From: Terrimicrobiaceae bacterium
GTDB taxonomy: Bacteria; Verrucomicrobiota; Verrucomicrobiia; Chthoniobacterales; Terrimicrobiaceae
Direction: 5' to 3'
NCBI GenBank assembly: GCA_044342325.1
Contig: JBIIPZ010000012.1
Coordinates: 9,354 to 73,353 of the forward strand
Length of the DNA stretch: 64,000 nt
Shown in pieces: positions 59,101 to 62,100 of the stretch. Position numbers: made by a program. The first letter of the stretch is position 1, and every line of letters starts with the position of its first letter.

Positions 59101-62100
59101 ATCAGCCTCCTTGAAATCCAGATTATGCGCGTTCCAATAATGCATCCATGGAATTTTGTATCCGGGAGGGTAGGCCATGAAGTGAAGGAGGAAGGTATTT
59201 TCATCCATGAAGCGCGGGTCGGTGTTGAACTCCGCCATCTCGTGGGCTTCATGATATTCGCCATGCGGATCGCGGCCTAGAACCAAGTCGCAAAAGACCG
59301 TTTGGTCGCTGCCATGGTCCCAGAGATTCGGCGGGCGTTTTTCCAGCGCGAAGCGATCCGTATCCTCCAAGATCTGCTTTGACCAAAGCGCATTTTGGAA
59401 AAAGAAGACGCCAGCATTGTAGGAAGAAATGCCTTGGGCAAAATCCTTACAAATATGCAGGGGCTTCGAGCTCGAAAGAAATGGTTCAAAGACTTTTCTG
59501 TCTTGCTTCAAAAACAGCGTGTCGGCATCCACCCACACGACTCCACGATGATCTCCCAAATGGTTTAAAAGCACCCGCGCCTTATGCCATGTCGGATGGA
59601 TTCCAGAATAAATTCCGGTTCGATAAATGTAAGCCGTGTAGTCGTGCTGCAAGCAGTAACTCAGAAGACTTTTTTCGGACTCTGCCGCATAGGAGACGAT
59701 TTCAGGCGTATAGAGGGTGCAAAGCGCAAGCGGTCTTCCTGGATTGAAGACATAATTTCCAAAAGATGAAAAAGCTTGCTTGGCGGGGAAATGACCAGCG
59801 CAATAATTGAAAAACGGCATGAGATCCACGCAGGGTTGCCATCTCTCTCGCATGCGGAGGAATAATGCTTGGGAGATTTCGGGGTTGTTTGACATCAGAG
59901 TTTTTTGATATAGGTAGGAACGAGACATTGGTTTGTCTCTTTCCCCACTCCGAACCGGACTTGCGGATCTCCCGCATCCGGCTCTCCGGTTGCGAATTTG
60001 CCGACTCCTCTGTTGCCAGAGTTTCGTCGGACGCCGGACCAGAGGCTCCGAGGACTTGCAGGATTTCCCTCCCCAGCTCTGGCTGTTCCGACGCACCACA
60101 ATAAGGCTTTGGCTTCCCCAAGGCTCGTCTGGCCGCACAGTTTTAGCTCGTTGAGCAATCGATTGTGCTTTTTAAATGGGTCCAGCTGGCCCATGTGGTT
60201 TCGCTTCCTGCCGCCCTTCGCTCCACGGGAATTACCCCGCTTCTTCGCTACTATGGCGGCTCTGACTCCTGCGCGGCCCCGTCGAAACGGGTTCCTGCCC
60301 GCGCAGGTCTCAACGCTTCCATATGACACCTTCCCTGCGTTCCCACCCCAACCATCCCCAACAGCCCGTTTCTCTCCCTTATACGAGGTTTGTGAGAGGA
60401 AACGGATGTGGCTCTGGCCACTGGCTTCGCCACTCGCTAGCAGGTCCGCCTCGGGCTGCTCCCCACCCCGTCTCACGACGACGCAGTTGCCTCCGGCGTC
60501 TCTCCCGTTGCTCGTCTCGGGATGACTCAGACTTTCACTGGTTGATTTCATATATGTGCGTTCGCACTAGCGGCGCTCTATGAGCGCCAGGGCTTTCTTC
60601 CATCGGCGGCCGCAGACCGCCGCTACAGGAACAGGTTTTTGTAAGCAATCGCTCATTAATCAAAAGACGCTTATCAGCTCATTGGAATACGCCTCGATAT
60701 TTGCTGGGAATTTTATATCGAGCGTCTTTAGAAAATCCGCCGCTTTGGCTTTGTAATCATTAAGATTCTTATCGTGACTTTCAAACGCCCTCACCAAGGC
60801 CTCGCCGCCCGCCTGACAATCAAAATCGGGATAAAAATATCCCTGATCGCGGATGAATTCGGAATTGTGAATGAGCGGATACCCGCCGTAGAGGGCCTCG
60901 TAGTAGAGATAGTTTTGCCCATTCTCCCAATGGTGGGAAACAATGCAGTCGCCGAAATGGGCCATGTATTCATGCACGGAAAAACGCCCTTCAAAGGACG
61001 CAACCCCATGGTTCACGATGTCCAAGAACTTGGCAAACCTCACGAATCCGGGATTTTCTTTCGCTTTGAGAGTGTTACAAATTCGAATGAATTCGAACCG
61101 ATCCGGCGCTTTTCTATAAGCCTCTTCGCAAACCAGCATGGGCATGATGCAAGTTTTAACCATGCACATATTCGGCTCGAAGGAGCAAACTCGCCAGCGA
61201 GCCTTGCCGGGTTCATAGCCAAAGCGTTTGCCGCTAGGCAGGGTGGCTGCTCCTTTGTCCAAAAACTCAGGCGTCCAAAGATGGGGCACGATTTTTACAG
61301 GGGCCCGCGTGGTGATGGCAAAGTAGTCGCTGCAGCTGCGTTCGTATTCCGGAAGCGTCCAGATGGCATCATATACCTTACCGCTACATAAGCCGGCTGG
61401 AGGCAAGTTATACATCGCCCGCTCGACATCGATCACATAGTCGTTGCCGCAACGCATCCAAGCAATCCGCCCTCCTCTCTGCCGGAATTTGACAAGCCAA
61501 TCTTCCGGCACTTGGGAACTCATCTCGATGATGACATCGAGCTTTTCTAGGGCGGTGGAAAGATCGATCATTTCAACGCCCACTTGGTCGAACATCATGG
61601 AAGGATGCACCTCTTTGGCGCCACTGCCATTGACAAGAACGGCTTTTTCAACCTCCGGCGAGAGGTTGAAAAGTTGGACGAGGAAAACGCAGTTTTGGAA
61701 AATGCCATTTTCCCAAATGGATTGGTGCCCATCCCGGATATGGATGGTTACACCGACACGAAGTTTGCGATTAGGTTTAGACATAGGGATTGTAGCGGCT
61801 GTCTGTGACTGCCGTTTTGTAGCGGCGCTCTATGAGCGCCGGAGCGTTCTTCCAACGACGGTCATAGACCGCCGCGACAATGGACTCGTCATCCTGAAGC
61901 GGCGCTGTGTGAGCGCCGGTTTCGTTTTCCATCGGCGGTCGCAGACCGCCGCTACAATAAACTATTTTGTCTTGTAGCGGCGTCTCTATGAGCGCCGTCG
62001 ATTTTCGGCGGGCATAGACCGCCGCTACAACGGAATCGTTTTTTCGGCGGTCATAGACCGCCGCTACAGCTACAACTTTATTTTGAGTTGTAGACATGCA

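Follow-up and report, generated by a model that had tools for sequence, protein, structure and literature searches.

Group II introns of class IIC, including the IIC-attC introns, are the closest described systems to the locus analysed here: they insert after a DNA stem-loop, lack an EBS2, recognise the 3' base in the EBS3 manner and, at about 1.9 kb, encode a protein with no endonuclease domain. This mode of targeting is described in PMC8643678, PMC7923331 and PMC10190682, with EBS1-IBS1 pairings of 3-4 bp in class C (PMC7923331). Targeting of terminators and hairpins has been tied to class C (PMC7306698, PMC12584367), and both the introduction of a paper from 2025 (PMC12584367) and a structural study from 2022 (PMC10190682) take DNA-hairpin targeting as a mark of class IIC. 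Miura et al. (2022; PMC8919778) also report g6, U1 and U2 types just after predicted terminators, near class C. For 'Unclassified' (U1/U2/U3) introns, the passages and section of that paper considered here contain no target rule, EBS analysis or link to REP elements, and a detected 5' end is missing from the unclassified rows seen for Verrucomicrobium, Kiritimatiella, Rhodopirellula and Paludisphaera.

Classes E and F (PMC3753933, PMC3552965) are alike to our family in other respects: a domain V whose loop has 5 nt and an alpha' that ends a stem-loop, both given as E/F features in PMC3753933, an IIB-like domain I, and no endonuclease domain. They differ in having an apparent EBS2-IBS2 pairing, none of which was found in the family. 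Bacterial ORF-less introns are nearly always accompanied by a related RT-encoding intron, which may act in trans (PMC4424553); compared with those covered there, the family has a single short form, distinguished by a domain IV of its own, at nine sites across a genus, and an apparent exchange of domains I-III with the RT form.

On the target side, REP elements carry a tetranucleotide 5' of a short hairpin, occur in many copies and as inverted doublets, and flank a Y1 transposase gene (PMC6006769). GTAG repeats have been reported in Verrucomicrobia, in a paper from which the word 'intron' is absent (PMC3733652). Several insertion sequences (ISPpu9, ISPpu10, ISPa11 and ISPsy8; PMC1525189) likewise use REPs as repeated, harmless landing sites, although these are DNA transposases whereas the family is an RNA-guided retroelement; in the same paper a Pseudomonas putida group II intron is REP-associated in two of nine copies. 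Full-text searches of papers open to them showed no REP-targeting group II intron among the results listed.

The locus lies in a 64,000-nt stretch of DNA (the window) from a Terrimicrobiaceae genome, G000. We put at roughly three in four the probability that it is a decayed ORF-less copy belonging to an unclassified, non-C, endonuclease-less lineage, whose members choose their targets by a hairpin, a 5-nt EBS1 and a C, with no EBS2.

An ORF-less intron in a REP element

The intron runs from 60567 to 59908 on the minus strand (660 nt), opens with GTGCG and closes with CTATAT. The genome-wide survey's note had described a 660-nt, RT-less group II intron in a REP tail, after GCTA and before C, and the intron ends, the Rfam match (RF00029, domain V/VI, 59908-59986, 48 bits) and the REP copies all agree with this; of the ends given there (GTGCG…CTAT) the 5' one stands, and the 3' one is corrected to CTATAT in this copy and CTCTAT in others. 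Two ORFs (218 and 354 aa) overlap the intron. The features of the locus are as follows.

59908..60567, minus strand: group II intron of 660 nt without an ORF, 51 nt shorter than the 711-nt form, from its ends, Rfam and alignment
60563..60567, minus strand: 5' boundary GTGCG, invariant across 31 aligned introns
60511..60516, minus strand: alpha element in the loop of subdomain Ib (alpha/alpha' pairing read by eye from the alignment, unscored)
60444..60445, minus strand: junction of the 51-nt deletion, flanked by short direct repeats, with the 5' strand of subdomain ID gone
60435..60439, minus strand: EBS1, 5 nt (TAGCG), from covariation with exon positions -1 to -5
60383..60387, minus strand: alpha' at a stem-loop tip (E/F-type placement), from the fold; the feature is named in PMC3753933
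60264..60309, minus strand: domain II, from the consensus fold
60210..60260, minus strand: domain III, from the consensus fold
59988..60209, minus strand: ORF-less domain IV, about 220 nt, genus-restricted by genome search (8 of 40 other genus genomes)
59952..59984, minus strand: domain V, 33 nt, AGC triad and 5-nt loop GAGAT, from Rfam and the fold
59908..59950, minus strand: domain VI, in which the stem around the branch A loses its pairing through four private substitutions, from folding energy
60568..60572, minus strand: IBS1 (CGCTA), which on the plus strand includes the TAG of the REP's GTAG tag, from covariation
60572..60588, unstranded: hairpin of the target REP (stem 7 bp, loop 3 nt), folding at -8.6 kcal/mol and present in 16 copies in G000
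59907, minus strand: IBS3 (C), on the plus strand the opening G of the GTAG tag, now displaced, from sequence
60604..60626, minus strand: partner GTAG REP, inverted (REP doublet), from sequence
60660..61784, minus strand: upstream gene with a DUF2827 domain match; the intron lies in the same sense
59074..59895, minus strand: downstream gene with a weak Glyco_transf_34 match, its ATG 12 nt past the intron
49126..49620, minus strand: Y1 (HUH) transposase gene of RAYT type, start not fixed, with 12 copies of the same GTAG REP around it

The site reads GGCGCTCATAGAGCGCC-GCTA, intron, C, with the hairpin GGCGCTC-ATA-GAGCGCC. Copies of this REP in G000 continue with C in 23 of 24 cases, the 24th being the intron site itself, and 26 copies of the family lie in the window. 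G000 holds 50 GTAG copies, 12 of them around the Y1 gene on contig C9, and 25 GGAA copies, three of them around a Y1 gene on contig C52; no Y1 gene was found tied to the GGAG families. By the REP features listed in PMC6006769 the target is therefore a GTAG-tagged REP. The intron splits this tag between G and TAG (CTA|C on the intron strand).

The survey had treated 660 nt as the lower end of a 660-711-nt range for a mobile ORF-less form; the short form does exist, and the 660-nt copy is a 711-nt intron with a 51-nt deletion rather than a size class of its own. The deletion costs 17 of 84 consensus pairs and takes away a region which we take, from IIB anatomy, to carry the sites (zeta and kappa) where domain V docks. 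An assembly artefact was considered and set aside, as contigs from X1 and X2, runs from two studies of which X1 may be the source sample, span the junction without differences. Four of the six private substitutions of this copy fall in domain VI, which folds at -17.5 kcal/mol compared with -28.4 and -29.9 in relatives. With the 5' arm of ID missing and domain VI damaged, the window copy is probably a dead remnant that would have lost its activity. The sole RT copy found in G000, a genome that is 86% complete, is also broken: it is present where the survey had placed it on contig C3, ends at 74377 rather than 74384 (C3:72460-74377) and has a foreign N-terminus, and of domains I-III nothing is left beyond the first 85 nt of the 5' end.

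Family spread and the two intron forms

Matches occur in 20 of 41 genus genomes, where the survey had counted 16; three (G002, G010 and G014) match by a domain V piece only, and the remainder are G000 and 16 others. As the survey had reported, relatives carry a 1873-nt RT-encoding form and a 710-712-nt ORF-less form with its own domain IV. The RT of the long form is 452 aa with RVT_1 and GIIM domains and no endonuclease domain. A wider scan of a genome collection confirmed 282 related stretches, from which 79 loci were kept (48-100% identity, mostly in Verrucomicrobiota); viral contigs gave no matches.

The ORF-less copies of relatives occupy six sites in six genomes, as previously noted, and their identity, formerly given as 93-98%, is now 93.4-99.4% (n=7); the seven copies make six sites, one site being common to G013 and one of the G015 copies. 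Counting genus genomes together with three metagenome contigs, the ORF-less form has 11 copies at nine sites with exact junctions, eight of them other than that of the window. Its domain IV is present in 8 of 40 other genus genomes, as 273-nt remnants in two of the eight, and in none of 61 genomes from 15 other genera. This domain had been called unrelated to the RT form, and a blastn comparison with 99 other loci bears this out, giving nothing better than E 2.3. The idea that it is a remnant of the RT gene was dropped for want of DNA similarity, as was a loose likeness, seen by eye, between one of its frames and the RT tail, because single-base indels break that frame in two of eight copies. 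Compensatory changes affect 1 of its 71 pairs, with variation too low to judge conserved structure.

Domains I-III are 95.9% identical among ORF-less copies and 95.9% identical between the two forms, and both main EBS1 alleles are present in both. This failure to separate by form suggests that domains I-III have been exchanged between RT and ORF-less introns, although near-identical copies may be mixed in assembly of metagenome-derived genomes and such chimeras could add to the apparent exchange. The same figures would also fit ORF-less copies that were immobile and arose in situ, by recombination of a short domain IV into resident RT copies. We regard that origin as doubtful: among the nine short-form sites and the RT sites seen, none is occupied by both forms in different genomes, and a metatranscriptome run yielded the full-length short form as one 755-nt contig, where DNA carry-over is possible. 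Judged from its presence at eight further sites, the 711-nt form is probably mobile in trans, moved by RT from the 1873-nt copies; the survey's claim of a mobile non-autonomous intron is supported in so far as the ORF-less form has spread to many sites, and is not supported for the 660-nt copy. A different metatranscriptome run contained a long form, with 1374 letters replacing domain IV and with the same possibility of DNA carry-over. No splice, circle or empty-allele joints were among the matches listed from contigs of X1, X2, X15 and X16, although contigs cannot prove their absence.

Target sites and REP elements

In an alignment of 31 introns, EBS1 positions 1-5 each pair with exon positions -1 to -5 in 28-30 introns, and position 6 is paired in four. 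Watson-Crick pairs number 144 of 155, compared with 79 +/- 5 (maximum 106) in row shuffles; IBS1 is mismatched to EBS1 in L003, L004, L013 and L149. The best block in a scan of 27 rows for an EBS2 scored 16.2, against a null 95th percentile of 16.0 and 56.7 for EBS1 as control; it sits in the alpha' stem and its score was reached by 14 of 300 shuffles, so that a weak signal is possible.

Upstream of the intron a hairpin of -5 kcal/mol or below is present at 51 of 62 distinct sites, compared with 12 of 62 upstream control windows; among shuffles the share is 14.5%, and among windows drawn at random from G000 it is 2.6%. The loop is centred 13-14 nt upstream (-13 to -14) at 51 of 61 sites, and the 3' base is C at 50 of 51. 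Within the genus all 18 distinct 3' exons begin with C, in agreement with the earlier claim that the exon restores the CTAC of empty REPs. The family thus works like class IIC, but with a different geometry. The IIC complex of known structure combines a stem of 12 bp with a spacer and an IBS1 paired at four contiguous positions (PMC10190682); in the family the stem is about 8 bp long, and IBS1 lies directly against it or overlaps it.

It could be argued that only the 5+1 nt of sequence are read and that the association with hairpins and REPs is a survivor bias, REPs being harmless intergenic sites and insertions in genes being purged by selection; RmInt1, an intron without an endonuclease domain, shows that such introns can use unstructured single-stranded DNA (PMC8643678). 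Intergenic matches to IBS1+C in G000, however, have such a fold in only 121 of 2075 cases, compared with 13 of 20 genus sites, and sequence alone does not account for this. The constant loop position and the hairpins still present at sites in G000 that are not repeats (L004, L013) argue in the same direction, and we consider a purely sequence-based choice very unlikely. We retain the reading in which a short DNA hairpin, the EBS1-IBS1 pairing and one 3' C would together select the target. Entry would be by reverse splicing into single-stranded DNA, presumably at replication forks. A strand bias was considered and set aside as weak: it is seen in 15 of 21 cases (p 0.08), five of six in G041 and seven of eight in G042, as scored by a 20-kb skew that is unreliable in G000.

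REP hairpins serve as landing sites, as the survey had proposed: among distinct genus 5' flanks, 16 of 21 have at least six copies in G000 and 5 of 21 have none or one (the earlier count was 13 of 22 with at least seven), using 22-mers with up to three substitutions, a measure by which 37 of 40 random 22-mers are single-copy. The EBS1 alleles TAGC, GAGC and GAAC go with GCTA, GCTC and GTTC, respectively. In G041, a single contig, all six copies, identical over the 342 nt searched, lie in GGAGTG-tagged hairpins, five of which match repeat families (67 and 73 copies), the remaining one being a variant. Two subfamilies in G042, 91-92% alike, divide the targets between them: copies with EBS1 GAGCG use a 90-copy GGAG family, and those with YAGGG use hairpins ending in CCCTG, two of five of which match a 67-copy GCAG family. 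Another copy lies in the flanks at 15 of 30 clade sites, compared with 6 of 282 controls.

This concentration in G041, the partition by REP family in G042 and the further copies in flanks would suit a dedicated REP parasite whose protein recognises REPs beyond hairpin shape and pairing. Once EBS1 is fixed, however, availability explains the REP share: repeats make up 49 of 83 perfect intergenic sites in G000 and 15 of 20 observed sites, which is no excess (p 0.11), with intergenic space defined by a crude greedy ORF cover. If one mismatch is allowed, repeats make up 77 of 363 available sites, a lower share, against which the observed sites do show a significant excess; target sites are related by descent, and all of these p values overstate. 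Near-identical introns also have targets that differ widely in hairpin sequence, and distant members use hairpins that are not REPs. REP-specific recognition is thus unneeded, and we think it unlikely; we read the data instead as a general hairpin rule with EBS1 alleles selected onto REP tags. The target hexamers rank 1, 2, 13, 16 and 20 of 2048 at intergenic hairpin feet. The survey's caution that REP use may be opportunistic is thus right as to availability, and falls short in that the alleles match the commonest REP feet, not terminator T-tracts. Since the Verrucomicrobia alleles fit the REP foot and its tetranucleotide tag, entry would fall between tag bases 1 and 2, on the opposite strand.

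Among the distant members on other hairpins, L101 has a T at +1, and its hairpin has, to our eye, the look of an IS200/IS605 end; L112 and L113 have sites ending in GGTTTA, with A after the intron.

Ribozyme core, reverse transcriptase and class

The family has the hallmarks of group II introns, with GUGYG...AY ends, domains I-VI and a domain V, and compensatory changes affect 57 of the 84 predicted pairs of the consensus fold. Domain V was found in 76 of 81 loci examined; its triad is AGC in 75 of these, the odd one being a pattern offset, and its loop is 5 nt across the family. The triad is CGC in all five class C references with a printed domain V. A CGC triad in domain V is a mark of class IIC. 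The wording of PMC4424553 is 'CGC for some introns'.

Two quick IQ-TREE trees of RT sequences, with 38 and 29 rows and no bootstrap, were built from the family and from references labelled after PMC3552965 and PMC8919778, leaving out g4, g5 and g6; one tree omits two family rows that lack an intact ORF, and the other omits nine near-duplicates. Class C is represented by five or six rows: PMC8919778 labels one of them C, two are neighbours of integron cassettes, and the others were assigned by domain V. The family forms one clade (SH-aLRT support 99 and 98-99) and class C a separate one (99); none of the E, g1, g2 or g3 references used falls with the family. A C-terminal DNA-binding insert of about 30 aa is present in four of four class C rows and, in a comparison of sequences only, in none of 19 family rows, where a short Arg/Gly-rich stretch occupies its place.

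The survey had assigned the intron to group IIC, and an ordinary IIC intron that inserts after any terminator-like stem-loop, meeting REPs by chance, would account for the upstream hairpin, the lack of an EBS2 and the missing endonuclease domain; the best PDB matches are IIC RTs, and in one tree the family clade lies near class C, with weak support (84). This explanation is already contradicted by domain V, by EBS1, which at 5 nt is longer than that of class C, and by the tree. The T-tracts or attC sites used by class IIC are replaced in the family by REP tags: a T-rich tail occurs at 1 of 62 sites even though ATTTT|T, which is unused, ranks third among the available feet. We regard the IIC explanation as highly improbable and reject the label. 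On the separate RT clade, the AGC domain V with its 5-nt loop and the missing C-terminal insert, the family is, as far as its sequences tell, not a member of class IIC.

A wider reading, which we offer tentatively and which as a whole seems somewhat more apt to fail than to hold, is that this would be a second, independently evolved hairpin-homing lineage: an E/F-type ribozyme, a short Arg/Gly-rich tail where class C has its DNA-binding bundle, reading of the tetranucleotide that guides the RAYT, EBS1 retuned to the REP families of each host, a tag split that would withdraw the REP from RAYT processing, and a genus-wide non-autonomous form trading targeting modules.

What appears to be new is a group II lineage outside class C that homes to hairpins and is tuned to REP tags, and whose 711-nt form is probably mobile. 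Terminator-adjacent types (2022), REP-targeting insertion sequences and ORF-less introns were already known, and the novelty is lowered because PMC8919778 places the g6, U1 and U2 types behind predicted terminators. A lineage outside class C that shares this logic and has another ribozyme core and protein tail provides a test of whether hairpin homing is ancestral or arose twice, and a hairpin, 5 nt and a C give a concrete rule for 'unclassified' types near terminators. The family also links retro-introns to the REP-RAYT system, and its retargetable 5-nt EBS1, together with the natural 711-nt form, could become a multi-site integration tool in Verrucomicrobia.

In PMC8919778 the Paraburkholderia pBN3 intron is labelled 'Unclassified'; it falls inside the family RT clade. 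Of the rows so labelled, L113, 49% identical, lies within that clade and L126 lies outside it.

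Altered intron copies and the downstream frame

Two copies of the ORF-less form, L011 and L024, found in the same-genus genomes G039 and G005, respectively, are 273-nt remnants that occupy a common site and arose through loss of the DNA lying between short repeats. In domain V they differ from the present-day ORF-less copies, and the short domain IV that characterizes this form is therefore old. A broken copy of the RT form is present in the source genome (G000) at C3:72460-74377, where most of the ribozyme has been replaced by approximately 600 nt of unique DNA; this DNA supplies an in-frame start for the RT, which lacks its N-terminal part.

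The open frame of the gene downstream of the 660-nt intron (window 59074..59895, minus strand) extends upstream into intron domain IV (window 59074-60138), and gene callers may thus append about 80 intron-derived codons to this gene.

REP clusters, palindromes and Y1 transposase genes

GTAG-tagged REPs form two dense clusters in the window. One (48894-49904) encloses the RAYT-type Y1 transposase gene (49126..49620, minus strand), and the other (61793-62066) separates two genes of the intron-bearing operon. Elsewhere in G000, a third Y1 transposase gene (L144; C70:85171-85503) belongs to an open frame that spans about 364 aa, and none of the six repeat families tested was found near it. G000 also contains 38 copies of a 34-nt perfect palindrome that carries no tag; it is absent among the 21 intron targets examined.

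Distant clade members and a second intron family

Three distant members of the RT clade (L101, L112 and L113) are located after hairpins that are not REPs. The hairpin at L101 presumably resembles an IS200/IS605 end, and the type found at L112 and L113 is flanked in L113 by two tyrosine recombinase genes. L174 (C18) represents a third, more distant intron subfamily of G042, and it targets the GGAG REP family that the GAGCG-type copies of this genome also occupy.

A second group II intron family is represented in G000 by three 3' ends (C34:20-67, C38:48546-48593 and C49:3652-3699), which have a longer domain VI and are all followed by C (3/3); the C38 copy is followed within a few bases by a REP-like hairpin. 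Approximately ten domain V matches similar to those of this family are present in the same-genus genome G015.
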